The notes under the pieces are model-generated. The model did no database searches. It was given only the letters and a program-made list of their open reading frames with translations, and was not told the DNA's origin. From IMG/VR virus record IMGVR_UViG_3300021399_003033, positions 9,619 through 73,618 of that record: DNA of 64,000 bases, one strand, 5' to 3'. This DNA comes from a virus. Its lineage: Duplodnaviria; Caudoviricetes. Every line of letters starts with the position of its first letter. Positions within the stretch are counted from its first letter, which is position 1. The translations under genes were made by a program, and so were the position numbers. Positions 222 through 64,000 of this stretch are shown in pieces.

Positions 222-389
222 ATGAAAAAAATTGAAATTACTTTTAAAGATGGTGGATTAAGAACTTGGGATTCTGAAGATTATACAGATTATATTTTTC
301 AAAAGCCAAATTTTTTTATTGTAATTAATGGTAGTTAGTGGGTTGGTATTTATAATCTTGATGAAATAAAGGAAATTATTGTAAAATGA
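222..389 (+). CDS. small hypothetical protein (55 aa, 1 in-frame TAG)
   Basis: MKKIEITFKDGG...NGS(TAG)WVGIYNLDEIKEIIVK-TGA. The TGA overlaps the next start (ATGA), and the frame fills the gap exactly only with TAG read-through. Confidence 0.7.
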
Positions 390-1270
390 AATTTGAAAAT
401 ACAAGAGTATATAATTTTGAAAATTCTTTTCGAGGAATGAGAAATCCAAAAAATAGCTGGGATTTAAGTGATAGTTATTTTAATATTACTGATAATGAAG
501 ATGGAGAAATTCTTAAAGTCGCTAATGCTTGGATTCAACAAGATCACCCTGATTGGAATGGACATAATGAAGAACATAAAAAATTTGTTGAATTACAAGA
601 TGAATATCTTAATTGGCTAATTACAAATGGTATTTTAAAAGAATCTAAAGACAAAGAATCTAAAGACCATGATTATAAAGAAGTTGCTTATATTGGACCT
701 AAAGATATGCATTTAGCTTAGCTTTTAATTCGTTCTGGTCCAGAACATCGCAAATTTCTTCGTCAAATTTTTGTTTCTGTGGATATAACTGCTCCACTCT
801 ATTGGTGGAAAGAAGCTGACACCTACAAGGTCGGAACAGTCGCGAACAGTACTTCTACAATGCATAAGCTTGCATCATATCCTATTACAGAAGAATGTTT
901 TGAAATGGGAGATTATAATGGTGATTTAAAACCATATGAAGGTAATCCTATATGCTTAGATACTACTGTTAAAACTATTTGGAATAATCTTATAATTGAT
1001 TGTGAAAATCTTCGCAGATGTTATAATGAAACGAAAGATATTCGCTATTGGAAAGAATTAGTACGACTTCTTCCAGAAAGTTGGCTACAAACTCGTACTA
1101 TAACAATGAATTATGAAAATCTTCTTGCAATATGTTCTAAAGGACAAAGAAGAAATCATAAATTAATTGAGTGGAGAGAAGATTTTATTAATTGGGCAAG
1201 GACTTTACCGTATGCAAACCAGTTAATTTTTATAGATGAACAAACTTCCCAAGATTTTACATTAAGTTGA
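386..1270 (+). CDS. thyX: ThyX-like (flavin-dependent thymidylate synthase fold) protein, 294 aa, TAG at 719-721
   Basis: Track ORFs 386..721 and 779..1270 are in one frame, joined by LA(TAG)LLIRSGPEHRKFLRQIFVSVDITAPLYWWKE. The H..FLRQI.V.V.I.AP.YWW.E and RT..MNYENL segments match the phage ThyX-like family. The canonical RHRxxSxxxxSxR motif is divergent. Confidence 0.7.
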
Positions 1271-1295
1271 TTTTTTAATAAAAAAATGATATAAT
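1267..1295 (+). promoter_or_regulatory. sigma70/sigmaA promoter TTGATT-N17-TATAAT with extended -10 TG
   Basis: TTGATT 1267-1272, TG 1287-1288, TATAAT 1290-1295, upstream of ATG 1333. Confidence 0.8.
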
Positions 1296-1332
1296 ATATT
1301 TATAAAGTTAAGAAATAAAAAAGGAAAAAATT

Positions 1333-1698: not shown

Positions 1699-1712
1699 GG
1701 AGAAAAAATAAT

Positions 1713-2672: not shown

Positions 2673-2693
2673 TTAAAAATATAATATATAAAT

Positions 2694-3796: not shown

Positions 3797-3803
3797 TTAT
3801 ATA

Positions 3804-3970: not shown

Positions 3971-4495
3971 ATGGCTCATAGAGTAAAATGTTATTATTGT
4001 CAACAATTTTTTGATAGAGATAAAGAACCTACTGTTCAAGTTATGAGTAGAAGATATGCTCATAAATTATGTGCAGAAAAGGCTAAAACTCATGTTGAAG
4101 AAGTGTTAGATGATAAAGGACAATTAGAACAATATATTATGAAATTGTTTGGGGATGATTATGTTACGCCCCGAATAAGAAAACAAATAAATGAATATGT
4201 AGATACTTATAATTTTACATATTCGGGAATATTAAAAGCATTAAAATATTTTTATGAAATAAAAGGTAATAATACAGAAAAATCTAATAATGGAATAGGT
4301 ATTGTTCCATATATTTATAAAGATGCTTTTAATTATTATTATCAAATATGGTTAGCTCAACAAAAAAATCAAGATTTTAAAATTGAAGAGTATCATCCAG
4401 AAGAGATAGTAATAAAAATTCCGCGGCCAGAAAGACCAATAAAAAAACGTCAATTATTTACTTTTTTGGATGAGGGGGATGATACGATAGAATGA
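3971..4495 (+). CDS. Zn-finger protein (CxxC...HxxC), possible helicase loader/replication protein (174 aa, TAG-free)
   Basis: VKCYYCQQFF...RYAHKLCAE; overlaps the DnaB start (ATGA). The loader role is inferred from position only. Confidence 0.6.
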   Translation: MAHRVKCYYCQQFFDRDKEPTVQVMSRRYAHKLCAEKAKTHVEEVLDDKGQLEQYIMKLFGDDYVTPRIRKQINEYVDTYNFTYSGILKALKYFYEIKGNNTEKSNNGIGIVPYIYKDAFNYYYQIWLAQQKNQDFKIEEYHPEEIVIKIPRPERPIKKRQLFTFLDEGDDTIE

Positions 4496-6036
4496 GTTCA
4501 AAATATGTGGACAATACAGCTATCATACAAGTAATTGGCGCAATCTATAATAATCCGAAACTACTTGATTTAACAGATAAATATATTATTACAGACCAAG
4601 ATTTTGACAATCAATTTCATAGAATAGTATTTGGAGCAATTTATAAAATTCACGAATTAGGTGCAGAGAAAATAACAATTGAAAATATTTCAGATTTTTT
4701 ATCAGATCGCCCAAAGTATGAAGCTATTTATAAAAGTAATAAAGGAAATGAGTGGATTTTAAAAATTGCTGAAAATTGTACTCCATTATCTTTTGATTAT
4801 TATTATGGAAGATTAAAGAAAATGTCTTTACTTCGAGCATATGATAATTATGGAGTTAATGTTTCTGATATTTATGATCCTGATAATATTTTGGATGTAA
4901 AAAAGAAACAAAAGCAAGAAGAGTGGTTAGATAACGCAAATCTTGATGATATTGCAAATTTAGTAGATGCAAAAATAGATAATATTAGAATGCAATATGT
5001 TGATGATTCTTTTGGAGAATCTATTCCGGCAGGCACTAATATTAAAGGGTTAATTGATAAATTTAAAGAACATCCAGAAGTTGGAGTTCCTATGTATGGG
5101 CCTCTAATTAATACTGTTACTCGTGGAGCAAGATTGAAAAAGTTTTATTTGCGGTCAGCGCCTACTGGTGTAGGTAAGACTCGTTCAATGATTGCAGATG
5201 CTTGTTATATTGGATGTAATAAAATTTATGATGAAACTTTTGGATGGATTAAAAATGGTGTTGCAGAACCAGTTTTATATATTACAACAGAACAAGAACT
5301 TGAAGAAATTCAAACAATGATGCTTGCTTTTTTATCTGCTGTAAATGAGGAACATATTATTAATGGAAAATATGAAGGTGATGAAGAAGAAAGAGTTTTA
5401 AAAGCTGCTGAAATTCTTGAACAAAGTCCTATTTATATTGAGGAATTACCAGATTTTTCATTAAAAGATGTTGAAGATAGAATTAAGAAAAATGTCAGAG
5501 AAAAAAATGTAAAATACATATGTCATGATTATATTCATACAAGTTTAAAAATTCTTGAAGAAATTACAAGACGTTCTGGCGGAGTTAAACTTCGTGAAGA
5601 TAATATTTTGTTTATGTTGTCAACAAAATTAAAAGACATATGTAATCAATATGGAGTATTTATTCTTTCTAGTACTCAGCTGAATGGAGACTGGAAGGAC
5701 GCAAAAATTCCAGATCAAAATTTACTTCGTGGTGCTAAGGCTATTGCAGATAAAATTGATTTAGGCGGAATTTTATTACCTGTAACAACTGATGATATAA
5801 AAGCATTAGAACCAATTTTAAATTCTAATATTTTTGCAAAGCCAACAATTAAATTGTCTATTTATAAAAATAGACGAGGTAGATATAAAGGTGTAATTTT
5901 ATGGTGTAAAGCAGATTTAGGTTGTTGTAGAATTCAGCCTATGTTTGCAACAACATATGATTATGAAATGATAGAAATTAATAATACTAAAATAATGGTT
6001 GAAGAAGGAGCATTTTATAATGGAGAATAGAAATAA
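4492..6036 (+). CDS. dnaB: DnaB-like replicative helicase, 514 aa (only TAG is the penultimate codon)
   Basis: Walker A RSAPTGVGKTR, YITTEQ, DYIH, LSSTQLN, LRGAKAIADKID and KNRRG motifs; ends GAA TAG AAA TAA. Confidence 0.9.
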
Positions 6037-7471: not shown

Positions 7472-9241
7472 ATGGAATATCAACTTAGAAAATCATTGCT
7501 CCCGCTTGAGTTTAATAGAAATTATAGTGCGGTAGAGCAGATTTTTATGAATAGGGGCATGTCCCCAGAAGAAACTTAGCATTATTTATCAGTATCATAG
7601 CAAGATTTATTAGATCCAGAATTACTTGATCATATGAAAGATGGAGCTAGGATGTTAATAAAACACATTCAAGCTAATGATAAGATTTTTGTTTTAATAG
7701 ATGTTGATTGTGATGGTATGACAAGTAGTGCTGCTTTAATTAATTATCTTAATATGTTATTTCCAGCATATACCTAGTCTCATATAATTTATTATATGAA
7801 TGAGGGAAAAATTCATGGAATTAATGCAGATACTGTTCCAGAAGATGTGAAAATGGTTATTTGTCCTGATTCCAGTAGCAATAGTTATGAAGATCATAAA
7901 AAATTGCGCGAGCGGGGATGTGATGTTCTTGTTCTGGATCATCACCTCGCTGAACGAGAATCCGCAGACGCAATAATTATTAATAATCAAATGTGCGACT
8001 ATCCAAATAAAACACTTTCTGGTGTTGGGATCGTATATAAATTTTGTTCATATTTAGATTCTTTATTAGGAACTGAATATGCTAAGGAAATTTTAGATCT
8101 TACTGCTGTTGGAATTATTGCTGATATGATGGATTTAAGAAATTTTGAAACTCATTATATCATTACTCAAGGACTTTAGCATTTCCGCAATCCATTTTTA
8201 AAAGAGCTTGCAGAACATAATGATTATAGTATTAGTAAAGCTGGGGGATTGCAACCATTCTCGGTAAGCTGGTATATTGCTCCTCAGATTAATGCTATTG
8301 TAAGATCTGGAACTACAGAAGAGCGTATGATTGTTTTTAAATCAATGCTTGAATTTAATTCATATGATTAGGTACTTTCAACAAAGAGAGGATGTAAAGG
8401 ATAGTATGAAGCATTAGTTACCTAGGCAGTCAGAACCTGTGTCAACGTCAAAAATCGTTAGACTAAGATTAGAGATTCTGTTTATACGACGATTGATAAA
8501 ATTATTAAAGACAAAAATTTATTAAATAATAAAATTATTGCGGTTAAATTAGATAAAAATCATGAAATTGATAGAAATCTTGCTGGATTAGTTGCAAATG
8601 AATTTGTTGCAGAATATAATCATCCTGTATTGATTCTTATGGAAAACGATACAGATGAAGGTATTAACTGGGAGGGTTCAGGACGCGGAACTAATACTAC
8701 TGATTTTGATGATTTTAAAGGATTCCTTGATAATAGCGGTTTTATAAACTGGGCAGAGGGACACTCAAATGCAATGGGTGTTTCTATCTCAGATATTAAC
8801 TTTGATAAATTTATTGAATATTCAAATAAAGAACTTGATAAATGTGATTTTAAAAAAGTTTATTTAGTAGATTTAATTTGGGATTTCTTTAAATTTAAAT
8901 CTCAAGATGTTATATCTATTGCTGATTTAAATAAAATATGGGGACAAGGAATTGAAAAACCTCTAATTGCAATAGAAAATATTTAGGTAACAGAAAATAG
9001 TTTAACATTAATGTCTCCAAATAAAACCCCTACTTTAAAAATTAAATTGCCAAATGGAGTAGAATTAATTAAATTTGGTTCTTCGCAAGAAGAATTTGAA
9101 TCATTACTACCTAATCCAGGAGGAAGTACAACTATTAATATTATTGGTACTTGTGATTTAAACGTTTGGAATGGTAATGTAACTGGACAAATTAAAATTA
9201 CAGATTATGAAATTATTGGTAGTAAAAAATATTACTTTTGA
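7472..9241 (+). CDS. recJ: RecJ-like DHH/DHHA1 ssDNA exonuclease, 589 aa, 9 in-frame TAGs
   Basis: AAGGAGG RBS; DVDCDG, PD, LDHH, GIIADMM, APQINA, GSGR and EGHSNAMG motifs in one frame. Four track fragments are joined by TAG read-through. Confidence 0.9.
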
Positions 9242-9243
9242 TT

Positions 9244-9274
9244 AAAAAGGAGGTAAAACTATGCCTCCTTTTTT
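9244..9274 (+). terminator. hairpin after recJ (AAAAAGGAGG/CCTCCTTTTT) with T-tract
   Basis: 10-bp stem 9244-9253/9264-9273 followed by T. The stem also contains an SD and an ATG (see findings). Confidence 0.6.
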
Positions 9275-9351
9275 AGTTCGCACGCCGGTGATGGGTCATG
9301 AGGACCGCCTTCCAAATCAAAAATACTTTTAGAAATTTTTGAAGCAAATAG

Positions 9352-9380
9352 TTGATTTTTTATAAAAAATATAATATAAT
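9352..9380 (+). promoter_or_regulatory. sigmaA promoter TTGATT-N17-TATAAT
   Basis: TTGATT 9352-9357, TATAAT 9375-9380, upstream of ATG 9416. Confidence 0.75.
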
Positions 9381-9415
9381 ATAAATAGAGATATAAATTA
9401 TAAGGAAGAATAAAT

Positions 9416-10600
9416 ATGATTCTTACTACTAAACAAGAACAAGGATTAAAAATAGCTGTTGAAAGACATAAAAATGGGGAAAAATATACGGTAATTTCTG
9501 GTTATGCAGGAACGGGAAAATCAACATTAGTTAGATTTATTATTTCTGCTTTAGATGTTGATGAAGGACGAGTATGTTATACTGCTTTTACTGGAAAAGC
9601 AGCTGAAGTTCTTCGTAAAAAAGGTAATAAAAATGTTAGTACATTACATCGGCTTCTTTATGAATCAATTCCAAGAGAAGCAGGTGGCTTTTTTCGTAGA
9701 ATTAAACCATCTATCCCATATGATATTGTTATTGTTGATGAATGTTCAATGGCTCCAAAAGAATTAATAGATATATTATTAAAACATAAAGTATATATTA
9801 TTTTTCTTGGTGATCCATTTCAGTTACCTCCAATAGATAAAGAGAATGATAATCATTTATTAGATAATCCTCATGTTTTTCTTGATGAAATTATGCGGCA
9901 GGCTCAAGAATCTGAAATTATTAGATTAACTATGAAAATTCGTAATCAAGAGCCACTTTCTTTTGAAAGCAATGATACTGTAAAAATTCTTCATCATAAA
10001 GAATTAACTCAAGGAATGTATAGTTGGGCAGATCAAATTTTAACTGGAACTAATGCTACTAGAGCCAAAATAAATACAGAAATGCGAGCTATGCTAGGAA
10101 AAGGAGCTGAACCAGAAGCAGGAGATAAAGTTATTTGTACTCGTAATTATTGGGAAGATTGTAGTATTTGCGGCGACCCATTAATTAATGGAAGTATTGG
10201 GTATCTTGTAAAACCTAGTAAGTCTAAAATATATTTGCCTTGGTTTTTAAGAAAAGAAAAAGAATATTTTGATGTTATAAAAACAGAAATAGAAATGCCT
10301 GATACTGGAGATATTTATCCTTTATTAAATATTGATTATAATATGCTACAAAAAGAAATTAAATCGGCAGATTGGCGATTAGAATATAAATTAGGAAAAA
10401 TGAAAAAACAATATGGGGATTTACTTCCGAAAGATTTTCTATATGCATATGCAATTACAGTACATAAAGCTCAAGGTAGTGAATGGGATAAAGTTTTAGT
10501 ATATGAAGAAAATTTTCCTTTTAATCGCACAGAACATGCGCGCTGGCTTTATACTGCCGCAACTCGAGCCGCAGATAAATTAGTTATTTTAAGGGAGTAA
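9416..10600 (+). CDS. recD: RecD/Dda-like SF1B helicase (394 aa, TAG-free)
   Basis: GYAGTGKS, TAFTGKAA, VDECSM, GDPFQLPP, YAITVHKAQGSEW and YTAATRA motifs. Confidence 0.85.
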   Translation: MILTTKQEQGLKIAVERHKNGEKYTVISGYAGTGKSTLVRFIISALDVDEGRVCYTAFTGKAAEVLRKKGNKNVSTLHRLLYESIPREAGGFFRRIKPSIPYDIVIVDECSMAPKELIDILLKHKVYIIFLGDPFQLPPIDKENDNHLLDNPHVFLDEIMRQAQESEIIRLTMKIRNQEPLSFESNDTVKILHHKELTQGMYSWADQILTGTNATRAKINTEMRAMLGKGAEPEAGDKVICTRNYWEDCSICGDPLINGSIGYLVKPSKSKIYLPWFLRKEKEYFDVIKTEIEMPDTGDIYPLLNIDYNMLQKEIKSADWRLEYKLGKMKKQYGDLLPKDFLYAYAITVHKAQGSEWDKVLVYEENFPFNRTEHARWLYTAATRAADKLVILRE

Positions 10601-11263: not shown

Positions 11264-14200
11264 ATGAGAAAATATTTTAATAATCATGCTCATACAATTT
11301 ATTCTAATGTTCGTCTTTTGGATGCAATAAATCGTCCAAAAGATTTGATTAAAAAAGCTCATGAATTAGGTATGAGCGGTATTGCGATTACAGATCATGA
11401 AATTCTTTCTGCACATGTAGAAGCTTTAAAAGTAGCAGAAGAAATTTATAAAGAAGATCCAGATTTTCTTGTTGCTTTAGGAAATGAAATTTATTTAACA
11501 GATACAAGAGATAATGGACAAAAATATTATCATTTTATTTTAATTGCAAAAGATGCTATTGGTCATAAAGCACTTCGTGAATTAAGTTCTCATTCTTGGT
11601 TTTGTTCATATATGGACAGGGGACTTGAAAGAGTACCAACTTTAAAATCTGAATTAGATGAAATTGTTCATAAATATCCAGGTCATTTAATTGCAACTAC
11701 AGCTTGTATTGGAGGAGAGTTAGGAACAAATCTTTTAATGCGAGCAAAAGCATTAGCGATAGATGATAATTATAATGCAGATTTGTATTTTATACAAGCA
11801 AAAGTATTTTTAAATTATTGTAAGAATCTATTTGGTGATGATTTTTATATTGAATGTGCTCCATCATCAAATGAAGATCAAATTGCAGTAAATAAGCAAT
11901 TAAAAGAATTATCAGAATTATTTAATATTAAAATGTGTATTGGAACAGATGCACATTATTTAACAAAAGAAGATAGACCTGTTCATAAAGCATATTTAAA
12001 TTCAAAAGGTGGAGAAAGAGAAGTTGATTCATTTTATGAATTTACATATTTAATGAATAGTGATGAAGTAGAAGAGTTATTGAGTTATTCTTTTGATAAA
12101 GATTTTATATCTGAAATTTTAGATAATAGTCTTGAAATTCAAAATAAAATTACAAAATATTCTCTTTTTCATAAACAAGATATTCCTAGAGTAGAGGTTG
12201 AAGATTATCCTAAGAAAGCGATGGGAGAGGCTTCAGAAAAATATCCTATTCTTAATTCTATGCTTTCATCTGATGATAAATATGAAAGATACTGGATAAA
12301 TGGTTGCATTAATAAATTAAAAGATATTAATAAATTCAATCAAGAATATCTTAGTCGTCTTGAAGAGGAAGCTGATGTAAAAAGAGTTATAGGTGAAAAA
12401 CTTGAAACTAATATGTTCTGTTATCCTGTAACTCTCCAGCATTATATTGATTTAATCTGGGATTGTGGTTCAATGGTTGGTGCAGGAAGAGGTTCTTCTT
12501 GTGCGGCATTAAATCACTATTTATTAGGTGTTACTCAGCTAGATCCAATTGAATGGGATTTACCTTTCTTTAGATATTTAAATAGAGAACGTATTGAGCT
12601 TGGTGATATTGATATTGATATTTGTCCAAGTAAACGTCCATTAATTTTAAATAAAATTAAAGAAGAAAGAAAAGCATATTTTAATGAAGATGTTGCAGAA
12701 TGGGCAAAAGAAAATCTTGGATGTACATTAGTTGCAACTTTTGGTACTGAGGGTACAAAAAGTGCAATTTTAACAGCTTGTCGTGGATATAGAAGTGAAG
12801 ATTATCCAGACGGAATTGATGTTGATGAAGCACAGTTTATGTCTTCAATGATTCCACAAGAAAGAGGATTTTTATGGAGCATTCATGATGTAGTTTATGG
12901 AAATCCAGAAAAAGGACGAAATCCAGTTCAATCTTTTATTAGAGAAGTAAATAATTACCCAGGTTTATTAGATATTATTGTATCTATTGAAGGATTAATT
13001 AACCATAGAGGTAGTCATGCATCTGGAGTTATTTTATTTGATGGAGATCCATTTGAACATTGTGCATTTATGAAAACTCCAAAAGGAGAAATTACAACTC
13101 AGTTTGATCTTCATGATGATGAGTATTTAGGATTAACAAAATATGATTTTCTTGTAACTGAAGTTCAGGATAAATTAGTTCAAGCGATTCAACTTCTTCA
13201 AAAAGATGGTCAGATTGAAGCTGATTTATCTTTAAGAGAAGTATATGATAAATATTTTCATCCAAATGTTCTTCCGTTAAAGGATAAAAGAATTTGGGAT
13301 GCATTAGGAAATGTATCTGTATTAAATACATTTCAGTTTGATTCTGCGGTTGGTTCTCAGGTTGCGAAAATGTTGAAACCGCAAAATGTTCTTGAAATGG
13401 CCGATGCAAATGGTCTTATGAGATTAAGTGGTGAAGATGGCGAAGAGAGACCGATGAATAAATATTATAGATTTAAAAATAATATAAATCTATGGTATAA
13501 AGAAATGGATGATTTTGGTCTTACAAAAGAAGAACAAAAAGCTATTGAACCTTATTTTAAATCTTCATATGGAGTACCTCCGAGTCAAGAGCAGCTAATG
13601 AGAATGTTAATGGATGAAAACATTTGCGGCTTCAGCTTAGGAGAAGCGAATGCGGCCAGAAAAGTTGTTGGAAAGAAACAGATGAATAAGATCCCAGAAC
13701 TTAGAGAAAAAGTTCTGAAGAGTGCAAAATCTGAGAAATTGGGCCAGTATATATGGAAATATGGAGCAGGTCCGCAGATGGGTTATTCTTTTAGTGTAAT
13801 TCATGCATTAGCTTATTCATTTATTGGTGTTCAGACTTTATATATAGCAACAAATTGGAATCCGATTTATTGGAATACAGCTTGTTTGATTGTTAATAGT
13901 GGAGCAACAGATCCAGATAATGGTGGTCAAACAGATTATTCAAAAATTGCGAAAGCAATGGGAGATATAATTAATGCTGGTATTAATTTAAGTCTTGTAA
14001 ATATTAATCAATCAGGTTATGGTTTTGAGCCTGATGCAAAAAATAATAGAATTTTATATGGAATGAAAGCAATGCTAAATGTTGGTGATGATGTAATTGA
14101 TGCAACAATTAAAAATCGTCCATATATTTCTATTAAAGATTATTATAATAAAGTTCATCCAAATAAACAGGCTATGATTTCATTAATCAAAGGTGGAGCT

Positions 14201-15154
14201 TTTGATGATATGATGGAAAGAAAAATGGCAATGGCTTGGTTTATTTGGGAAACATGTGATAAAAAGAAGCGTATTACTCTTCAAAATATGGGAGGATTAA
14301 TTAAATATGGTTTACTTCCAGAAAAAAATGAAGAAGAAGTAATGGCAAGAAGAATCTATGAATTTAATAGATATTTAAAAGCTATTTGTAAAAATGGTGA
14401 AGGATATATATTAGATAATAGAGCATTAAATTTTATTCATGAAATTGAAGCAGATAGTTTGTTAGAGAATAAAAATAATGAATGGTATATTTCAGCAAAA
14501 AATTGGGATAAAAAAGTTTATCAAAAATGGATGGATGTATTTAGAGCATGGATTGCTGAAAATAAAGATGAAATATTAAATACATTAAATTCAAAGATTT
14601 TTTATGATGATTGGAGTAAATATGCTAAAGGAACAATCTCTGCTTGGGAGATGGAAGCTTTATGCTTTTATTACCACGAACATGAACTCGCTCATGTGGA
14701 TAGTTCAAGATATGGCTTTGTTAATTTTATGGATCTTCCAGAAACCCCAGTAATTGATAAAGTATATAAGAAAAATGGTAAAGAAATAAAAATATTTAAA
14801 CTTAATTTAATTTGCGGAACTTGTATTGCAAAGAATAAAGTCAAGAGTACTGTAAGTCTTTTAACTACAACTGGAGTAGTTACAGTTAAGTTCAGAAAAG
14901 AATATTTTAATCTCTTTGACAAACAGATTTCTGAAAAAAATCCAGATGGAACTAAGACAGTAAAAGAAAAATCTTGGTTTAATCGTGGAAGTATGATTAT
15001 CGTTCAGGGTATTCGTTCAGATGATAATTTCGTAACAAAAAAGTACGCAAACTCTGAAATGCATCAACTTTATAAGATAGATGAAATTCTTCCAGATGGC
15101 AGTTTAAAAATTAGGAATGAAAGATACCAGGGAGAAGCAGAAGATGATGAATGA
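11264..15154 (+). CDS. dnaE: DNA polymerase III alpha subunit (DnaE), 1296 aa, TAG-free
   Basis: PHP motifs (HAHT.YS..D, AITDHE, GTDAHYL), GAGRGSS, GDIDID, HASGV, KYDFL and GYSFSVIHALAY; OB fold at the C-terminus. Confidence 0.95.
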   Translation: MRKYFNNHAHTIYSNVRLLDAINRPKDLIKKAHELGMSGIAITDHEILSAHVEALKVAEEIYKEDPDFLVALGNEIYLTDTRDNGQKYYHFILIAKDAIGHKALRELSSHSWFCSYMDRGLERVPTLKSELDEIVHKYPGHLIATTACIGGELGTNLLMRAKALAIDDNYNADLYFIQAKVFLNYCKNLFGDDFYIECAPSSNEDQIAVNKQLKELSELFNIKMCIGTDAHYLTKEDRPVHKAYLNSKGGEREVDSFYEFTYLMNSDEVEELLSYSFDKDFISEILDNSLEIQNKITKYSLFHKQDIPRVEVEDYPKKAMGEASEKYPILNSMLSSDDKYERYWINGCINKLKDINKFNQEYLSRLEEEADVKRVIGEKLETNMFCYPVTLQHYIDLIWDCGSMVGAGRGSSCAALNHYLLGVTQLDPIEWDLPFFRYLNRERIELGDIDIDICPSKRPLILNKIKEERKAYFNEDVAEWAKENLGCTLVATFGTEGTKSAILTACRGYRSEDYPDGIDVDEAQFMSSMIPQERGFLWSIHDVVYGNPEKGRNPVQSFIREVNNYPGLLDIIVSIEGLINHRGSHASGVILFDGDPFEHCAFMKTPKGEITTQFDLHDDEYLGLTKYDFLVTEVQDKLVQAIQLLQKDGQIEADLSLREVYDKYFHPNVLPLKDKRIWDALGNVSVLNTFQFDSAVGSQVAKMLKPQNVLEMADANGLMRLSGEDGEERPMNKYYRFKNNINLWYKEMDDFGLTKEEQKAIEPYFKSSYGVPPSQEQLMRMLMDENICGFSLGEANAARKVVGKKQMNKIPELREKVLKSAKSEKLGQYIWKYGAGPQMGYSFSVIHALAYSFIGVQTLYIATNWNPIYWNTACLIVNSGATDPDNGGQTDYSKIAKAMGDIINAGINLSLVNINQSGYGFEPDAKNNRILYGMKAMLNVGDDVIDATIKNRPYISIKDYYNKVHPNKQAMISLIKGGAFDDMMERKMAMAWFIWETCDKKKRITLQNMGGLIKYGLLPEKNEEEVMARRIYEFNRYLKAICKNGEGYILDNRALNFIHEIEADSLLENKNNEWYISAKNWDKKVYQKWMDVFRAWIAENKDEILNTLNSKIFYDDWSKYAKGTISAWEMEALCFYYHEHELAHVDSSRYGFVNFMDLPETPVIDKVYKKNGKEIKIFKLNLICGTCIAKNKVKSTVSLLTTTGVVTVKFRKEYFNLFDKQISEKNPDGTKTVKEKSWFNRGSMIIVQGIRSDDNFVTKKYANSEMHQLYKIDEILPDGSLKIRNERYQGEAEDDE

Positions 15155-18398: not shown

Positions 18399-18878
18399 AT
18401 GAGATATGCAGGAATTATACCAAATGATTTCGCCGCAGCTCCTGGAGTATGTACTACATTTTTTGTTTAGGGTTGTCCAATAAAATGCCCTGGTTGTCAT
18501 AACTCTGAAACTTGGGATTTTGAAGGCGGAAAAGAATTTAATGCAGAGGTTTTAAATAAATTAGAAGAAGATTTACTTGCTAATGGAATTAATAGAACTC
18601 TTTGTATTATGGGAGGAGAACCTCTCTGTCAAGAAAATTTATTCTTAACAACTATGATTGTTACAGAAATGAAACATAGATTACCAGATTTAAAAATTTG
18701 GATTTGGACTGGATATGAATATAAAGATATATTAGAAGAAGAATCTAATCCAAAAATTAAATATATTTTAGAAACTGTTAATGGATTGGTTACTGGTCCT
18801 TTTATTCAATCTTTAAGAGATATTACTCTTCCAATGAGAGGTAGTAGTAATCAAGAGATTATTAATTTAAAAAATTGA
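18399..18878 (+). CDS. nrdG: anaerobic RNR activase (radical SAM), 159 aa, TAG at 18468
   Basis: FV(TAG)GCPIKCPGCHNSETWDFEGG CxxxCxxC cluster motif, GGEPL, IWTGY; AAGGAGG RBS. Confidence 0.95.
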
Positions 18879-25706: not shown

Positions 25707-25711
25707 ATTTA

Positions 25712-32444: not shown

Positions 32445-32447
32445 ATC

Positions 32448-34517: not shown

Positions 34518-34533
34518 ATTAAATTACCTCCTT

Positions 34534-52842: not shown

Positions 52843-53148
52843 TTAATTCCCCTCTTCTTCTTCTTCTTCAGTTGGAGCTGGAGTTGGAGAAATTATATTT
52901 TGTAATTCTGTTATCAAATCATCTAATTCTGTAGAATTAACCCCAGAATTTTTTACAATATTTGATAAAATATAAATTTTATTATATAAATCATCTATTT
53001 TAAACTCTATTTTTCCTACATGCTATGATAAATTATCTGTATTATTAAAAGTTACTTCTCCTGTAGTATCAGGAGAAGTAACTTCAAAAGCATGGGTTTT
53101 TAGAGTATTATAAAATCTCTATAATTTTTCTGTATTAATTAAACCCAT
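52843..53148 (-). CDS. small hypothetical protein, 101 aa, 2 TAGs
   Basis: The start overlaps the upstream stop (TAATG); acidic C-terminus PTEEEEEEGN. Confidence 0.65.
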
Positions 53149-56100
53149 TAAGGTGTACCTCCATTAGAAAAGATAGCATCTATTTCTTCATCAGTTGCAA
53201 TTTCAATTGCTTCTGCAACTTTCTAGAAAGCACTATTAATAGAATCTGTTTCAGCTATTAATTCACTTGTAGATTGATAATCTGTTAATAGTAAAGATCC
53301 TACTTTCTTTGTTTCAAAAGATAAAGCTCCAGTAGTATCAGAAATTAAAACTGAATTTAAAACTAAATCATTTGAACTATTAACTGCTGATACAGTTGGC
53401 AAAGTAATAGTATGTTCTTCAAGAGATACTACATGCCCCATTTGGTCAATACTTGCGGACAGTGCCTTAAAAGTGGATCCAAAGCCAGGTGTTTGTGCTG
53501 CTGTATCTCCTTTACTCACGGCCGCAGAACCAGCTGCCGCATGTCCTATAGCAATTTGATCATTAGTATTATCACCATTAATTTCAATCCATCTATTTCC
53601 AGATTTAAATGTTATAGAATCTGCTGATGAAGTAGCATTTATACTAGCATTATTACCAGTTATAGAAGTTGTACTTGCGCTTGTTCCAGTAATATTAAAG
53701 GTTTTGAAATTATTCGGTAAAACATATTTATGGCTCTAATTTGCAATAACATGTCCAGCTGCATCAAACTCTAAATCTTGGACAGTAAAATCTGAAACAG
53801 TTTCTAAATCAGTATCAGCTTTAGCAGTATTAGTAATAGTATGAATTTCATGTGCAATACCAACTAAAGTATTAGTATTATCAGCAACTAATTTAATCCA
53901 TTTGTTTTGAGCTTCAAAAGCTAAAGTCTCTAAAATATCCTATGCAATAACATTTCCATCTGTTCCAGAAATTGTTGTTGTATTAGTTGTATTACTTACA
54001 CCAATTGTCTTATAGCTATAAGGAAGCGTAAATACATGTGGTTTATTTTCTATTACATGTCCAGCTAAATCAAATACTAAATCTTGAATTGTTAATGTAT
54101 TTCCAGAACTAACTGCATTGAAATCAGTAGTGCTAGAAGTTGTAATAATATTATGCGTTTCATGAGCAAGAACTAATTTATCATTAGTTGCATCACTTTG
54201 TAATCTGATCCATTTATTTCCTGCTGAAAAAGTTAAAATATCTTTTGTATTATCAGCTACAATATCATCAGTACTTTCACCAGTTGAATGGGTTGCTCCG
54301 GCGGCTTGCGACCATAAGTTCTCGTCATCAGAACTATTTTCACTCTTCAAAATTTTGAAAGTAAATGGTAGGGTTACTGTTTCAATATTTTTACCGACTA
54401 CATGTCCTTTAGCATCTACTTTTGGAGTATATAATTCTAAAGTATCAGATCTATCATTTTCAGAAATAGTAGAGGTAGTATCTGCAACAGGATTATATAA
54501 ATGTTCAAAAGTAATTTTAGGACTACTTGGATTTGCAAGAATATTTACTTTTAACCAATTATCTGTATCCCAAGGAGAACTATGAATTCTACCATAACTA
54601 TCTGCAATTACAAACTCTTTAGGTTTTAATTCATTAAGTTTATAAATATAATCATTTAATGTATTTATACTACCCTATAAAGTTGTTTTATCTCTTGTAT
54701 CTACATTTCCAATCTCAAGCATTTTATTCATCTGTAATATTAAGCCATTGATTGTATTTAATTCTCTTGCAAAACCAACTAAAGGAATTAAAGTTAATAC
54801 TTCATCTTTATATGCTAATTTAACTGAAGCAGGAATTAAATCATTAGGTTCACCTAACCATTCTGCGCCTCGTGGATAAAGATATTTTTCATCTTCCATA
54901 ACAAAAATAGGTGTTCTTTCAAAATATACCCTATTTTCTGTCATATCACTAGCATAATCCATTAAATATTCATCTTGAGAATCATTCTAATAATAATACT
55001 TATATGGTTTATAAAATTTTTTATTAACTTTTTCAAAATTTAATTTCTAATAATATTCTCTTCCTTCAGTCATTTTAGAGCTACGATCTTTAACCCAATT
55101 TAAATCTGGAGTTTTATACCAATATAAATTAGAAATATAAAAATTACCCTATAAAGATTTCTCTAAAGTATAATATTCTGCAAATATAGGTGCATTACCA
55201 TTTTCTTCTTCAATAAATTGTGCATCATATTGTGCTTTTAAAATTTCTGGTGTTAATAATCTCCAACGACCAGTAATAGTTAAAGTTAATGGGTCATCCA
55301 CAGAGTTAATATTAGGATTAGGAATTTCTGAAATATTTTCTCTAAAATAATATTTATTTTCTTCAAAAGGAATTAAATTTACTCTATATACACCAGATAC
55401 ATTTACAATGTTATTAATAATAGTAGCTGGTACGATATTACCATTCTCATCCTCAATCATAATTGTGGTAGCTTCTTTACTAATTGTTTTATCTAATGCT
55501 AAATATTCTCTTTCTGTTACTTCTGGATCATTAGCATCATATTTTGCTTTCCACTATTCATGACTCATTTTTTCAATAAATAATACTGTTTTTGTAGGAT
55601 CAGTCGGACTAACACCATAGTAATAAAATCTATCTGGCTCATAAATATAAACTAATTTCTATGGTATTAAGGTTTCTCCATCTTCTCCAGTAGTCCATCC
55701 ATAATTACCAGTTTCATTATCATATATACTTTTATCCATCATATTCAAATTAACTGGTTTTTCACTAGGCATTAATTCATAATATGCATGACCTTCAGTC
55801 GCATTTTCATCAGTTGACAATATATAATCTGTTCCATCTGCATCATATATTTCAGTTCCTTGCGCGACTGGATAATAATATTTATTAGATTCATACTTCC
55901 CAGATAAAGTTGCTCTTATTCCATTCTAAAATTGATAATATTCTACATGATCTGAAGGCTATCTTCCTTTATCATAATTCCATTCACCTTTTAAAGTACG
56001 AATATAATAACCAGGAGTAAACTAAGATAAAGATACCTAAGACCATTTTGCATTTGATGGATCACAAATTTTCTTATAATACTCTTCTTCATTATCATAT

Positions 56101-58079
56101 TCATCTTCTGCAATTTCATAAGAATTACCATTTTTTATAAAATAAATGCCTGGTTCATATTCTAATTCACTTAAATCAACTTGTTCATAAGTATATTTTA
56201 TTTCTACATAATTATATTCAATACCTTTTCTATTATAACTTCCATCTACTGGATTATAATAAATATTATTGCTTGGGGCAACAGCTAATTCTTCCGGTGT
56301 TAAATCTCTTTCTGTATTTGTAATAATCATACCCATTAAATCATGAGCAGTATTAATTGCACCTGCTAAAGTATTTACCTAACTATCATCATAAGTGAAA
56401 CTATTTCCATTAGGTTTTAAATTAACTAAACGAAGTCCTTCTCTAGCTAATGCATTTCCAGCATCTTCCCAAGCAATATCTAAATTTCTTTTATTTGTTG
56501 TTTTTATTAAATCATTAGTATTTCTTCCGCCATATACTAAATCCCATACGTGAGCTAAACTATCACCCAAAGATGGTAGCATTACAGAAAATTCTTGTGT
56601 ATCAATTTGCGGTTCAAAATTAACTGTACCAGCTTTTTTATGATAATGATATTCATTTCCACTAAAACCAGTAGCAGCAATATTTATTTTATCTTCATTT
56701 GTCCATCCAGAAGCAGAATATTCAGATATACTGCCTTCAATAGGATTTCCATTTGCATCATATTGAATTAATAAATCATCACTATAAGAAATTGTTTCTG
56801 GATCAAAACCTTTTTTGTTATAATAGATTGCGGCGTCCACATCAGAAAATTCTGGTGCAGTTTCCCAAGTAAAAGTTAATGGATTATATGTATAATTTGT
56901 AAAAATTTTCTAATTTTTATCATATAATTCACTAGTCCATTGAGTAGTTTCATCAGAAGGATATAAAACTTCATTACTACTCATTTTATTAACAGGGTTA
57001 TTATCAATCGCACCTGTCGTTGAAATAGTTGGTCCCATTAATGAAGGTCTAGCAGCTTTAATTCTAAATCCCCATTGCGGCTGCCAATGAAGTTTATAAT
57101 AAACATTGGTACTATCAGTATCAAAGTGCGGCATGATGGGTATCATAGATGGGGCGTCCGCAGTTACATCAAAAGTAGGAACTACAGTATTTAATTCCGC
57201 AATCATTACATATTTTTCAATACCGCCGCTATATACTTTCTACCATACTGTAGAATCATATCCTCTTGAAGTTCCATATATAGCTACATCAGTTTGAAAA
57301 TTAACTAAAAAATTCTATTGAGCATTAGAAGAAAGATTTAATGTATCTTCTCCAATTTCTGCTATTGTTTTCCATAAAGCTACATCAAAAATTTCTTTTA
57401 ATTCTCCATCTTCCTAATGGATATAAGAAATTGTTGTAGTACTATTATTACCAGTTAATGGGACAATATATTCAGTTAAAGTATTTAACTAATAAGAATA
57501 TCCTTCTGGAACTACATATATAACATTTGGAAAAGCAAAAGCTAATGCTTCTCTTGGAATTGAAAATTGTCCATTAATTCTTAGAACCTATCTGCTAGGA
57601 ATTGTTATATCATTATCACCCCAATATTGAGCAAAATCAGTATTACTAACAACTTCATAACGAACAATATTATTAGCACTAATTTCTTTTGCTCTAATAT
57701 ATATAGGAGATGTATTCTAATTATAAACATGATATCCAGGTTCAATTCTAAAAATTTTAGAATTATAAGCAGTATTTTTAACACTATCCATTACATCTGA
57801 TTGTGTTATAACTTGCTAAATATAATCTTCCTAATCAGTTGGAATTAAAAATCCTTCTTCATTTTTCATCCAACCCCTATATAAAATATCTCCAATTCTA
57901 TAAAAACCAGAAGGATATAAATCGACAGATCTATTTTCATCATATTCTACTAGAACATATCTACCAGTATATACCCCATCTTTTGCGCACGCTTGTTCCA
58001 TAGCCCAACGACTAGGATATTTTTTATCAAACTAAAACTATGTTCTAGCAGTATTGGTTATATTACCATAAAAACCCAT
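53148..58079 (-). CDS. giant tail/baseplate structural protein, 1643 aa, many TAGs
   Basis: MGFYGNITNTART(Q)F(Q)FDKKYPSR; seven track fragments share one frame; four C-terminal repeats NKWI.L...H...D..GHV.....LP; ends DEEIDAIFSNGGTP. Confidence 0.75.
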
Positions 58080-58455: not shown

Positions 58456-61400
58456 TTAATAAATTCTATTAACAGCTTTTGTTGCAACAATAGACATTGT
58501 ACCATTATATGTTAAAGGTATTGTTAATTTACTAATTAAATATTCTCCTTGAATATTACTATTGGTATCATTAACAAGTATTCTTGCATTAGGTTCTAAA
58601 TAATAAATTGGTATAGAGGTTAATGTAATCTATTCTGAACAATAACTATAATTATACAATAAACTATTTAATTCATCAAAAGCAGATTTAGTCTACGAAC
58701 TAATTGAAAAAAGATTTTCAATATTATTGGTTATATTTATATAAGAATAACTTCCTTCCTATGCTGCTTCTATGATTTCTTCAATATTATCAGTTTCATC
58801 TTTAAAAACAACAGGAGGAGTATCTCTATAATAAATAGCTTTTATCTTGTCATCATTAACAGTTTTTGGCCGATCTCCAATCTATTGGACTCCATACTAA
58901 GCTAAATCTCCACCATAAGTAGTATCTATAAAATCAATCCAAAATATTAATTTTTCTGGATTTGATAAATAAGTTGTCCAATATGTTTCTGGATTAAACT
59001 AATCTGTTAAATAAATTTTTAATTTCTATATATTTCCATTAGAATCTTGCCATTCTTGTTTTTCTTTTGTGTAATATTTATTAGATTCAAAAACCAAATT
59101 ATTTAAATTAGTCCAATATTGAGCCTTATTAGATTCCCATATATCTTTATTAACAATTTCAAATTCATAATCATTATTTAATTGATATAATGGATAATTA
59201 CCTTCCGTTGGGAAATCTGATTTACTATAACATAAATTAAAAAATCCCCAATCATAATAATTATATGGACTCATTGTATCCATTTGTTTATAAAGAGAAC
59301 GATAATTATCAAATCCAATAAAAGCTAATTTATTATTATTTTTTAATATTGTTAAATCACAAATTAATCCAGCTCTATTTGCGATTTCAATCTAAATATC
59401 TTCTGGAATAGCAGAATTTTTTCTTTTATTATAAATAGAAATTGCTAAATCTTTAGCATTAATATATTTATTATCTTCTAAGACGTAATAAATTTTAGAA
59501 TCATTATATTGCTCTAATTCTTTATTTATTAACATATAATAATCATTAGTAATTATATAATAATTCTATCCTCTCTTAAAAGATATTAATGGTTTGCGTT
59601 TATAACCTTCACCATAATTAATTGTATCATATCTTCCACTATGATCAGGATACTATATATTTCCATATTTATAAATTTTATTTTCATTTAATTCTGGATT
59701 TTCCGCACCTAAACGATAATATTGTTCATAAATTTTTGTAGGATATAAATAATCAACATTCTAATCTTCACCATCAGTCATTAATATATGATACCAATAT
59801 CCTTTTTCACTACCATAATTTTCAAAATCTAGCTATGGAATTAATTTATATCCTTTATAAATATAATAAATTTTATTTATTTCATAAGTAAATTGCGCGA
59901 CTCCATTGTTATTATAATAAGTTCTGCCTTTTACAAAATAATCATCTACTTTTATTAAATTATTATTTTTATCTTTATAATAATAATCTATAGCGTCTGA
60001 AATAGTAAAAGCTTCGTTATATTTATAACTTTTTCTATAATATTTTAATTCTTGTGCTAATGCAGCATTATAATGAGTTGCTAAGCTATAATTTGGACCA
60101 GATTTTGTATAATAATTAATTCCTAAATTCTCAAATTGAATCTATGATAAAACTGAATCTACCTAATTATAAACCTCTTTTCCCTAGGTATAATATGTTT
60201 GTCCTTTTTTTAAAGAAGTAGATTTTTCATATCCAAGATATTCATAATAAGAAATTCCTTTAATATAATCAAACTATGGTGCAAAAATAGTAGGTTTTTC
60301 TATTTTAGTTTCATCTGTAATATAAACATATTTACATAAATTATATTTACCATTATTATCTTTATAATAATATTCTTTTTTATATGGCATACTCTAAAGA
60401 TCTAGTAAACCTTTATATTCATACCAATAATAATCATCTTTCTTATCAAAAAAATAAGGTCTATATAATTGCCAAGAATTATTTCCTAAATTTAAAAAAT
60501 AACAACCACTATATTCACCAGTTCCCGCAACTAAAGATTCTGTTGGATATAATTCAGAAGGATGATATATTTCATTTATATAATTTTCATTTACAGAAAA
60601 AACAACATCTTTATAATAATAAGTTAAATTTGGATCTAATCCTTTTATTTCAGTTGCATCATGAAAAGAATATGTTTTAAAAGCTTTAATTTCTTCATCC
60701 CAAATATAATAATTTAACTAATTAGTATCTGGAATATTATCATCAATATTTAAATATTCTATATCTGTATTATATAAAGTATCTCTCCAAAAACCTTCCA
60801 TATCCTAATAATACTATTCATATCCAGTATAACCAGAAGGATAATAACGAATATTTTTTTCTCTAATTAATGAAAGAAAATCATCTTGAGTATTATATTT
60901 ATAATAATCTATAGCCATCTAATATATAATTTCTCGCCAATCTACAATCTAATAATTAGTAATAGGAACAATATCTTCTGTTTCATCACTTCCTATTTTT
61001 TTACTAAATTCAGTATCTGATTTTAAACTATCTGGGACTTCAGGATTAAAAATATAACTATGATACCAAGTTTCAGGATTTTCATTTTTTCTTTCTAAAG
61101 CATAGAAAAATTTATGATTACATCCAGTTAATCCTTGTGGATAAATAGTAGAAATTTTATATCCATGTTCAACAGATCGAATATATTCTTTTTTTGTTTC
61201 TTTTAATAAAGAAGTATCAAAAAGCCAACACCAAAAAAACTATCCTTTTTCTTTAGCAGAATTAATATGATTATAATATGCACTATTAAGATTTTCTGGC
61301 TATGGAAAAATCACAGTCCAATCTTCTGTTTGCCAAGTTTTTCCAAAATTTCCAAGCTATAAAGTTTTTAACTAATATAAATAATAATTAAAATCTTTAA

Positions 61401-62988
61401 TTGAAGAAGTAGGCTAAGTTGCAGATTTTACAATATCATATACTTCCTATCCAGATAAATTTAAATAATAAGACATAGGATGTTCATTATCTATATCAGC
61501 AAAATATAAATATCTTCTTGCCCAATCATCAATTTCCCACCAATCATCTGATAATCCAGTAGGCAAAGGTGTTGTATGGAACATATTATATTTAATAACC
61601 TCTGATGATTCAATTAATTCATTAGCACTTTTTTCATTAACCAATCTATCATATTCTTCTTGAGTTAAAAAAATTTTATTATCCTAATTTTTATAATAAA
61701 CAGGTTTTTTATCTATAGCATATCTTAAATGGATAGGAATATTTTCAGATCTTTTCCCCCAAATGACATAATCATTTTTTATATTGGCAAAATCTGGAGA
61801 ATTTTGAATTGCTGTTAATAAATTACTATCATTAAAAGAATAAATAAAAGAAGATGTATAAGCAGCATTATCTGCATATCTTTCATCTTTTCTATTTACA
61901 ATATTATTCCAAGAGACATTTGTATAAGCTTTTTTTCTACGAAAACGGAATCTTCCATCCACATCATAAAAATATTCAAAATCTCCAAGCATTTTTACGA
62001 TTAAATCTAAAACACTTGTTAAAGTTGATCCTACATTTGCAATTAAATCTCCTGCATAAGTTAAATCTGTTAAGCGATAACCAGCAGTTTCTCCATATTC
62101 AAGTTTTGCTACAGAATATATTTTATATATAGGGTTTGCGGCCGTTCCTATATTAGTATAAATATAAGTAAATAAAGAAGGATCATATTCTAAATTTTTA
62201 GTTCTTGTATCATAAAAAAAATTATTAGCTCTTAAAGAAATAGTTTTCTAAGTAGGCTAATTATTTTCCCATATATTATAAACTAAATCATCTGTTATGT
62301 CATCAAATTTAATATTATCAACTTCAGAAGTCTCATAATTAAAAAATAGGTATAATGGAGTATCTCCTCGATACTCCATTAATTCAAAACCATTCTAATC
62401 TAAATCTTCAATAATAATATTGTGATATGGTTCATTACCATAGACATGAATAGCCTCTCTAATAATATCTTTTAATTTCAAATAATTATAAGTTATACTT
62501 CCATCTTCATTTATAATTTCTTCTTTTCCAAAATCAATGCTACAAGCAGTAATATTTCCTCCAAGATTACCATTTAACATACACATTTTATCTTTACCAG
62601 AAATACTAACTGTAAAATTATTTGTTGAAATAGATGTATTGAAATTAGTAATAATATAAACGCCAAGATTAAACCAAATAATAGAATCATATCTATCATC
62701 TATATTATTAATTAAACCAATATATAACTAAAATTTAGATTCTACTCCCCAATAAGTATCTCGAATATTTAAATTTTTAGCAATTAAAGAAAGAGAACAT
62801 GATCTTTGTAAATTTGATGCTCCATCAATATTTACTGTTCCGCCAGTTACTTTTCCTTCTATTTCTTCGATTGGATTTTCATTATGATCTAAAGAAACAA
62901 TTTTAGCAAAAATTTCTTTTCCATGTTCCATATCTAATTTTGCTAAAAAATCTTTATCTAGTAAAGGATTATTTTTATTATTTATCAT
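58456..62988 (-). CDS. tail/baseplate hub-like protein, 1510 aa, about 33 TAGs
   Basis: AAGGAG RBS; IEGKVTGGTVNIDGASNLQRSCSLSL, FNLGVYII, SISGKDKMCMLNG.GG, FEYFYDVDGRF, KNDYVIWG; C-terminal YLEPNARI.V.D..T.I.GEYLISK.TIPL..NGTM.I.ATKA. Five track fragments are in frame. Confidence 0.75.
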
Positions 62989-64000
62989 AATCTCTATTCT
63001 CCTTTATACATTAATAAAGCAATATCTAATTCTTTAATAAAATCATTGTAATATTGTTTTATTTCTTGCTCATACTAATGTTCAACTTTTCCAATCTCTT
63101 GAATAGTACCACTTTTTCCAATTAAATAACGAGAATTATTATTAATAACTGTTTCATATTTTTTTAATTGTCGTAAATAATTTTGTTGTTCTCTATTTAA
63201 TTGATCCTAATTTGTAATTTTAGAAATTCGTGTCTAATAATCCTATTCTAAAGAAATTAAAGATTTAAAAGCATTATATTTTTCTATAATTTCATTATAA
63301 GCTTTTTTCTTTCCATCAACTGTTTTATTTGTAAATTCTATATCATAAGTAAGTTCTCTTATTTGATAACACATTTCACAAATAACAGCATTATTAAATT
63401 CTATTTTTGTAATTTTTTCTTCTCCTAAATCTTTTAAAGCATATTTATAAATACCATCTAAATCTATAGTATCTTTATTAATAGTAATTTTAGTATTATA
63501 TTCAGAAGAATCAAAAATATAATCTGTCTAATTTCCATCTAACATTTTTCCTGTAAAAACAGGTGTTTGATTTCCATTGGCATCTACATAAACACCATAA
63601 TTAAACATACTATCAACATAATATTGTTCATTTGGTAAATTATAATAACTATAATCTCCTCTAGAATTACAAATTGCATAAATATAATAAGGATCTGCTT
63701 CTTCTAAATTAAATACTTCTGTACAGTCCATATCTTTATAATACTAATCAATAAAAACTGCCTAATAACAATTTCCTGTCAACTAATTAAAATCAGTTGG
63801 TTTCTAAAAATGCTCTAAAATATTATGAGTATTTTCATCTGTTTTTGTTTCAGAAATATAATAATACTATCCTTTATAATAATTTGTCAATTGAGGTTCA
63901 CTTATTGAAACCATACGAATTCTATTTTCATAAAAACTTCCTTGCGGCAACCAAAAATCTTCTTCCATTTTAATAAAAGGATTATTTGAATTATTATTAA
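62985..64000 (-). CDS. structural/tail protein, 5'-partial, several TAGs
   Basis: Open from the window edge and includes track ORF 63528..63731. Read-through of TAG 62994-62996 gives a TGA overlapping the next ATG (ATGA). Confidence 0.65.

Follow-up and report, generated by a model that had tools for sequence, protein, structure and literature searches.

A large rumen phage that very probably reads UAG as glutamine, with a predicted group I intron in the suppressor tRNA gene of most related contigs

The stretch analyzed here (the window, 64,000 nucleotides) comprises bases 9619 to 73618 of one 73.6-kb phage contig, IMG/VR record IMGVR_UViG_3300021399_003033, which has a G+C content of 29.7% and no terminal repeat. 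Its genes contain in-frame TAG codons that, as an earlier note made from the letters alone had proposed, very probably encode glutamine (genetic code 15). The window consists of two arms. A plus-strand arm for replication and nucleotide metabolism (positions 222 to 22217), in which TAG is sparse, encodes, by Pfam, an AAA_24 (Sak4-like) protein, DnaB, a RecJ-like nuclease, an SF1 helicase, DnaE, guanylate kinase, NrdD, NrdG, dUTPase, and a RuvC-like protein. A minus-strand structural and lysis arm (22259 to 64000), in which TAG is dense, encodes, by PHROG, a small HExxH peptidase, a holin, and tail and virion proteins, several of the latter exceeding 1,000 amino acids. Genes for GyrB, RNase H, GyrA, and an NAD-dependent ligase lie on the contig upstream of the window.

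Within the plus-strand arm, the dnaB-like helicase gene (4492 to 6036) has a single TAG two codons ahead of its TAA, which may be a former stop codon, and the gene for the RecJ-like DHH nuclease (7472 to 9241) has nine in-frame TAGs, including those at 8423 and 8459. The genes for the 394-amino-acid SF1 helicase (9416 to 10600; identical protein on 15 other contigs) and the 1,296-amino-acid DnaE-type DNA polymerase (11264 to 15154) have none. Five in-frame TAGs, two of them at 16770 and 17091, occur in nrdD (16149 to 18386), one (18468) in the nrdG activase gene (18399 to 18878), one (21023) in the dUTPase gene (20543 to 21127), and three, including that at 21151, in the gene for the RuvC-like resolvase (21127 to 21624; Pfam RuvC E = 1.9e-7).

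The minus-strand arm includes the holin gene (25296 to 25730; PHROG holin E = 5e-25), with four TAGs in 144 codons, and genes for a 2,526-amino-acid protein (42389 to 49969; 2,510 amino acids as called in relatives), with 9 TAG and 18 CAG codons, a 1,643-amino-acid structural protein (53148 to 58079), with 25 TAGs, and a 1,510-amino-acid tail-associated protein (58456 to 62988), with 33 TAG, 20 CAA, and no CAG codons. The exact product of the last gene, translated with TAG as glutamine, is recorded on two other contigs. A 700-amino-acid open reading frame (ORF; 39900 to 42002; 610 amino acids as called in relatives) lacks TAG despite lying inside this TAG-dense arm. At the right edge, 62985 to 64000 is the 3' part of a gene that encodes 1,108 amino acids in relatives; an exact look-up of the 327-amino-acid ORF there gave no match because the window cuts the gene.

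Reading TAG as a residue turns a fragmented map into a coherent one. With table 11, the window resolves into many short ORFs; with TAG as a residue, both arms are tiled nearly without gaps, and a greedy nonoverlapping gene set covers 96.9% of the 73.6-kb contig. Comparison of the two translations, which the earlier note had suggested, gives 15,720 amino acids in ORFs of at least 100 amino acids with table 11 versus 22,862 with TAG as sense, and the longest ORF grows from 1,308 to 2,533 amino acids. Reading TAA as sense also inflates ORFs, but without a coherent gene map, and this inflation is the expected noise of AT-rich sequence. Among 48 window ORFs of at least 50 amino acids, from which in-frame TAA and TGA are excluded by construction, 35 contain at least one in-frame TAG (194 in 20,602 codons), in keeping with the note's statement that most genes do, and the ATGA overlaps that it described are present at 386 to 389 and, on the minus strand, at 62985 to 62988.

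Domain matches extend at full length across TAGs in NrdD, the RecJ-like protein, NrdG, dUTPase, and the AAA_24 protein (Pfam), that of NRDD forming one stretch from residue 119 to 740 across four TAGs. The genes for the RuvC-like, holin, and HExxH proteins, which the note had seen emerge on read-through, give Pfam or PHROG matches only when TAG is read through. Its further claim that no gene requires TAG as a stop agrees with ORF structure, as all 48 ORFs end in TAA (39) or TGA (9), and is weakened by six ORFs with a TAG within the last 15 codons. These near-terminal TAGs may be former stops and could still serve as stops early in infection.

The opposite reading, in which the phage uses the standard code and the TAGs represent pseudogenes, assembly or sequencing errors, or sites of RNA editing to CAG, has in its favor nothing beyond the many short ORFs of table 11 and is almost certainly wrong. 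A coding density of 97% and the full-length domain matches are obtained only with TAG as glutamine. The same TAGs are found in more than 20 independent assemblies from several studies. A 9.8-kb test stretch is also spanned by contigs of two additional DNA runs, which come from a bovine study and from a different sample of the source study; the 40 best-supported differences there all lie outside TAG codons. Contigs from two metatranscriptome libraries, covering only parts of the examined stretch, are identical to the DNA and span approximately 14 distinct TAG codons; the TAGs of the 1,510-amino-acid protein are kept in RNA-library contigs, and those of the 1,643-amino-acid protein are kept both there and in independent DNA runs. 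Relatives have TAA or TGA at only seven of the window's sense-codon sites, compared with 194 in-frame TAGs. At window positions 12236, 12323, 17544, and 47048, one relative has TAA or TGA at a sense codon, which may reflect misalignment near insertions, sequencing errors, or broken copies.

The residue encoded by TAG was assessed in homologue alignments in which TAG was masked as X. In NrdD, columns 208 (16770) and 315 (17091) contain glutamine in 120 of 120 homologues (72 to 99% identity), and column 315 also does so in three solved NrdDs. In the RecJ-like protein, scored in 150 diverse representatives at 32 to 55% identity, glutamine occupies column 330 (8459) in 148 and column 318 (8423) in 80; across all nine TAG columns, it is enriched 7.4-fold over background, far above other residues. 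The NrdG TAG at 18468 aligns with the glutamine of F-Q-G-C in two solved sequence variants of pyruvate formate-lyase activase, and the dUTPase TAG at 21023 aligns with glutamine in all four solved dUTPases displayed. TAG is therefore found at family glutamine sites in NrdD, NrdG, and dUTPase, as the earlier note had stated; its fourth example, the LD*SS motif of the RuvC-like protein (21151), aligns with proline in Escherichia coli RuvC and lends no support to glutamine.

Comparison of strains gives the same residue. Relatives cover 164 of the 194 TAG sites. TAG takes part in 57 distinct codon differences, and the other codon is CAA or CAG in 47 of them. When only segments with at least 94% identity are counted, this applies to 35 of 37 TAG differences, 21 being TAG-CAA double changes. 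The commonest exchange partners of CAA are CAG (43) and TAG (32), the next having 11, so that TAG behaves as a third glutamine codon between strains. With TAG counted, glutamine-type codons account for 3.05% of codons in the plus arm and 3.22% in the minus arm; without it, the values are 2.65% and 2.01%. Use of TAG and CAG per gene is anticorrelated (rho = -0.59, p = 8e-5), and TAG-rich genes contain almost no CAG. In the 2,526-amino-acid protein gene, the window has CAG at eight sites where relatives have TAG; strains of one phage therefore differ in their recoding. From these three independent lines (alignments, exchanges, and codon use), it appears very likely that the phage translates UAG as glutamine, and this degree of confidence extends to the whole explanation developed below, comprising glutamine recoding, a phage-encoded tRNA(CUA), and a timing gate.

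Neither a tRNA nor any other RNA family was detected by ARAGORN and Rfam in the window or elsewhere on the 73.6-kb contig. The tRNA with a CUA anticodon that the earlier note had suggested seeking is found outside the window, in the same phage population. A related contig that overlaps the contig's first 12,407 bases at 99.887% identity carries a tRNA(CUA) gene approximately 26 kb upstream of the contig start (L035 19807 to 19894, minus strand, equivalent to L041 999 to 1089; called by ARAGORN, Infernal tRNA score 56.8 bits). It lies in an array of at least 19 tRNAs, including tRNA-Gln(UUG) (L039 88 to 11853; L035 16057 to 19982), and most of the neighboring protein genes are TAG free.

In eight other related contigs, ARAGORN reports no tRNA(CUA) at this locus. 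Of the nine contigs that carry the locus, eight have a 220-nucleotide insertion that separates U35 from A36; in the allele at L039 7918 to 8227, exon 1 occupies 7918 to 7951, the intron 7952 to 8171, and exon 2 8172 to 8227. The insertion matches the Rfam group I family RF00028 at L039 7950 to 8146 (55.7 bits versus a gathering threshold of 50, E = 1.4e-13), a match that is not reported when 12 kb is searched at once. Exon 1 ends in CUCU and the intron in UAAG, giving a U before the intron and G as its last base, and the joined exons restore a CUCUAAA anticodon loop, as in the intronless allele. The insertion contains no ORF and is probably a group I intron, for which self-splicing is predicted. 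The two tRNA(CUA) alleles also differ by a compensatory change from G12-C23 to U12-A23.

Other features of the array are unusual. Both tRNA(UUU) (85 nucleotides) and tRNA(UAU) (89 nucleotides) have long variable arms, one tRNA-like gene with 17% G+C receives a four-base anticodon call (AATA), and a weak tRNA(GUA)-like gene lies directly upstream of the suppressor. A further tRNA gene (L039 8788 to 8901, equivalent to L035 18978 to 19092, minus strand; Infernal 49 to 50 bits) has an insertion of approximately 43 nucleotides in the anticodon region. Between tRNA-Pro and tRNA-Gln, L039 5907 to 6015 resembles a Y RNA (YrlA; 40 bits, below the Rfam threshold of 69), and a gene for a DUF2828/DUF7788 protein lies 7.5 kb downstream of this match (L039 13564 to 15108); the two may constitute a Ro/Y-RNA-type module. 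A candidate mimic of a CUG anticodon loop in the variable arm of the suppressor (CUCUGAA, in one allele) was rejected, as the other allele folds with a different loop.

The use of TAG differs markedly between strands. On the whole contig, TAG accounts for 13% of glutamine-type codons on the plus strand (41 TAG, 197 CAA, and 72 CAG) and 37% on the minus strand (163 TAG, 226 CAA, and 47 CAG; Fisher p = 1e-13). In addition to dnaE and the SF1 helicase gene, gyrB, gyrA, and the ligase gene contain no TAG. The same is true of 14 promoter-proximal genes of the plus-strand operon, which lie upstream of the contig and are seen on the near-identical contig. Among the genes of the operon head (L027 5120 to 12657) are those for a Thg1-like protein, an RNA ligase, an AAA_33 kinase, and two or three metallophosphatases; they are all TAG free and look like a set for tRNA repair or maturation that is expressed before the code switch.

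This distribution is consistent with the mechanism that Borges et al. (doi 10.1101/2021.08.26.457843) proposed for such phages, in which the change of code acts as a timing gate. The tRNA(CUA), spliced where needed and charged with glutamine, would outcompete release factor 1 at UAG. Until it builds up, any genes translated would have to be TAG free, as are the 14 promoter-proximal genes and those for gyrase, ligase, DnaE polymerase, and a helicase, and the TAG-rich tail, holin, and other late genes would be completed only after the tRNA had accumulated.

Several observations weigh against this explanation, beginning with the identity of TAG as glutamine, which is deduced here from nucleotide sequence; RNA libraries may contain DNA, so the retention of UAG in RNA is weak evidence. 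The suppressor is absent from the window and contig, being seen on a near-identical contig joined through the 12.4-kb overlap. No release factor 2, glutaminyl-tRNA synthetase (GlnRS), or other code-change protein occurs in the approximately 125 kb examined, so that the release-factor variant or GlnRS that the earlier note had considered did not materialize there; all contigs end at the tRNA array on its left, and approximately 65 kb or more of the genome lies beyond the examined part. The split between early and late genes is not clean, as replication-arm TAGs occur in the RecJ-like gene (nine), nrdD (five), and a GIY-YIG endonuclease gene (nine), and the 700-amino-acid ORF is a TAG-free exception in the late arm. 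The variable arm of tRNA(CUA), at 17 to 21 nucleotides, is unusual for tRNA-Gln, and the closest paralogue in the array of this presumably glutamine-charged tRNA is the long-armed tRNA(UAU).

The shape of the tRNA bears on a different assignment, in which TAG is sense but is decoded by a class II-shaped suppressor as another residue, e.g., serine, isoleucine, or tyrosine. In E. coli, the GlnRS identity set consists of U35, G73, a weak 1:72 pair, G2-C71, G3-C70, and G10, and tRNA-Gln is a class I tRNA with a short variable loop. Five of these elements, all in keeping with glutamine identity, are present in the phage tRNA(CUA), namely, U35, G73, G2-C71, G10, and a weak 1:72 pair (U.U or A-U), and C3-G70 takes the place of G3-C70. 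The long variable arm together with G73, and the greater similarity of tRNA(CUA) to tRNA(UAU) than to the phage's own tRNA-Gln(UUG), would suit a residue other than glutamine, and Kienbeck et al. (PMC10879173) predicted such isotypes, including isoleucine at 10%, for some phage suppressors. The invariant glutamine columns at TAG sites in NrdD, the RecJ-like protein, NrdG, and dUTPase and the exchange of TAG with glutamine codons among close relatives nevertheless make a nonglutamine residue very unlikely.

The imperfect division between the arms is relevant to a second alternative, that the recoding is real and has no timing role, TAG having spread by C-to-T drift in an AT-rich genome once the suppressor was present. 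The 30% G+C content, the many TAG/CAG polymorphisms between strains, and the TAGs of the RecJ-like gene and nrdD are all compatible with drift. Against it, the TAG share depends strongly on the arm, and TAG is entirely missing from the largest replication genes and from the 14 promoter-proximal genes. Furthermore, half of the TAG exchanges are with CAA and need two base changes, and C-to-T drift from CAG alone is therefore insufficient. Drift without a timing role is regarded as possible, but rather unlikely.

A suppressor supplied by the host, or a host that itself uses code 15, would render the phage tRNA(CUA) dispensable; no bacterium is known to use this code. Against such dependence, the phage lineage has retained a tRNA(CUA) of its own, whose alleles differ by compensatory stem changes, and the TAG-free promoter-proximal genes fit a standard-code host. 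On the other side, a TAG suppressor was detected in only 40% of the TAG-recoded genomes surveyed by Borges et al. (doi 10.1101/2021.08.26.457843). Dependence on the host is considered highly improbable.

A more specific version of the timing gate can be put forward, albeit speculatively and with considerable doubt: the switch to UAG as glutamine might be gated by self-splicing of the intron, the odd tRNA being charged with glutamine, and intron-split suppressors might explain part of the 60% of genomes in which none was detected. On this view, efficient splicing would be required for the suppressor to appear, and the TAG-free early enzymes encoded near the array (the Thg1-like protein, RNA ligase, phosphatases, and kinase) might help.

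The window is part of a large phage of sheep and cattle rumen, at least approximately 190 kb in length as judged by contig overlaps. Related contigs reach 183.5 kb, and overlaps extend at least 116 kb past the right end of the window and more than 35 kb before its left end; upstream of the contig, there is a second late block that contains TAG. Exact-protein look-ups found same-lineage contigs, 94 to 99.9% identical, in sheep and cattle rumen assemblies from several studies. The tail, holin, and virion proteins and an SPbeta-like replisome confirm that this is a phage, as the earlier note had proposed. Its DnaE polymerase is 39 to 40% identical to those of large Enterococcus phages and of Bacillus SPbeta (YorL), and the YorF and YorH families are among the gene calls of relatives.

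The host is plausibly, if indirectly, an anaerobic member of the Bacillota, to which NrdD/NrdG, the rumen and gut origin of the samples, and the affinities of DnaE and GyrA point. GyrA is closest to Clostridia metagenome-assembled genomes from gut and rumen samples, and the phage probably infects Clostridia. The TAG-free gene blocks, namely, the 14-gene operon head and the largest replication genes, are the sole indication that the host uses the standard code. A megablast search of 20 kb against 50,697 deposited phage genomes gave no match, and deposited phages provided only remote protein matches. An IMG/VR scan with a 600-amino-acid protein was also negative, and two other scans of that database returned only a 19-kb and a 33-kb contig. 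No terminase gene is present in the window or in the approximately 125 kb of related loci.

Several other features vary among relatives or adjoin the window. Just left of the window, the GIY-YIG endonuclease gene (L001 8540 to 9544) has nine TAGs in 334 codons, in an otherwise TAG-poor arm. In two relatives (L002 and L003), insertions of approximately 0.85 to 1.1 kb, each with a GIY-YIG endonuclease ORF, interrupt both dnaE and nrdD (L002 14019 to 15083 and 18720 to 19563, corresponding to window sites 13413 to 13418 in dnaE and 17398 to 17400 in nrdD). In L005, the dnaE insertion is present and a GIY-YIG ORF directly follows its split nrdD. Both genes are intact in the window, and an Rfam search of the insertions of relatives found no group I intron at E <= 0.01. 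The conserved, GC-richer spacer at 9242 to 9415 was considered and set aside, as it resembles an ordinary terminator with an AT-rich stretch behind it that may contain a promoter.

The tail-fiber region (window 32000 to 38400) is replaced or highly divergent among relatives that are otherwise 96 to 99% identical, with different gene sizes and varying Laminin_G_3, C1q, Gp10_C, and CBM-type domains; this looks like the swapping of receptor-binding modules. Approximately 3.3 to 5 kb past the right end of the window, a gene for a 569-amino-acid radical SAM protein, with eight TAGs (L033 4962 to 6671), sits between large tail genes and adjoins the tape-measure gene (2,666 amino acids in L033 and 3,051 in L034).

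In practical terms, table 15 is required to translate the contig and its numerous relatives from the rumen, as table 11 breaks up most structural genes and leaves the holin, RuvC-like, and peptidase genes unrecognized. A common phage of sheep and cattle rumen thereby joins the recoded phages, and its many sequenced strains show the exchange of CAG and CAA for TAG still under way. The intron-split suppressor provides a concrete and checkable reason why tRNA finders report none in many recoded phages, and an intron in the suppressor gene might also add a further point of control to the code switch.

Recoding of TAG to glutamine is already established for gut phages, as the earlier note had stated. 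It was described in crAss-like phages by Yutin et al. in 2021 (PMC7886860), surveyed in human and animal guts, cattle included, by Borges et al. (doi 10.1101/2021.08.26.457843), and confirmed by metaproteomics by Peters et al. in 2022 (PMC9523058). Divergent tRNAs may be overlooked, as was suggested both by Borges et al. and by Yutin et al. According to a 2026 survey (PMC13037316), 8.75% of rumen jumbo phages use alternative codes, and tRNAs of jumbo phages recoded in this way contain “intronic sequences”; the present case is not named there. Like known code 15 gut phages, the phage described here comes from the animal gut (including cattle) and has a low G+C content, increased coding density with TAG as sense, TAG aligned with glutamine and concentrated in structural and lysis genes, ORFs that end in TAA or TGA, and a phage tRNA(CUA). 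Borges et al. also noted strong recoding of an intron endonuclease in a TGA-recoded clade, similar to that of the homing-type endonuclease here. In contrast to those phages, it has a suppressor tRNA with a long variable arm, whose gene is interrupted in most related contigs by a group I intron.

The Borges clades Jade, Sapphire, and Agate (mean genomes larger than approximately 150 kb) are similar in their large genomes, animal gut origin, recoded structural genes in more than one module, and only partly recoded replication genes. Membership of these clades is set by terminase phylogeny, and the likeness is one of description, the loci read containing no terminase; unlike them, the phage shows, in the approximately 125 kb seen, neither a release factor nor a tRNA synthetase that would form a “code change module.” The core genes and gene order of Crassvirales were not found, and the PHROG matches, mostly to families of unknown function, include no crAss-like annotation; the DnaE/SPbeta-like replisome also argues against Crassvirales. 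The 2,526-amino-acid protein has remote matches (25 to 27% identity over 21 to 29% of its length), mostly in Bacteroides phages of approximately 35 to 46 kb. SPbeta-like Bacillota phages and large Enterococcus phages share the same kind of replisome, including the YorL-type DnaE and YorF/YorH, but are annotated with the standard code, and their structural genes have no recognizable similarity to those of this phage.

The insertion in tRNA(CUA) resembles the group I introns of bacterial tRNA anticodon loops, reviewed by Hausner et al. in 2014 (PMC3984707), in its position within the anticodon loop, length of approximately 220 nucleotides, U-ended exon 1, G-ended intron, and lack of an ORF. It differs from those introns in lying in a phage amber-suppressor tRNA and in parting U35 from A36. 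No account of a group I intron within a phage suppressor tRNA turned up in a search of the open-access literature. The phage adds to the known recoded gut phages, with the TAG and glutamine pattern that Borges et al. describe, and what is new here is the suppressor tRNA of this lineage, its long-armed shape, and the putative group I intron that, in most related contigs, hides its gene from a standard tRNA finder.

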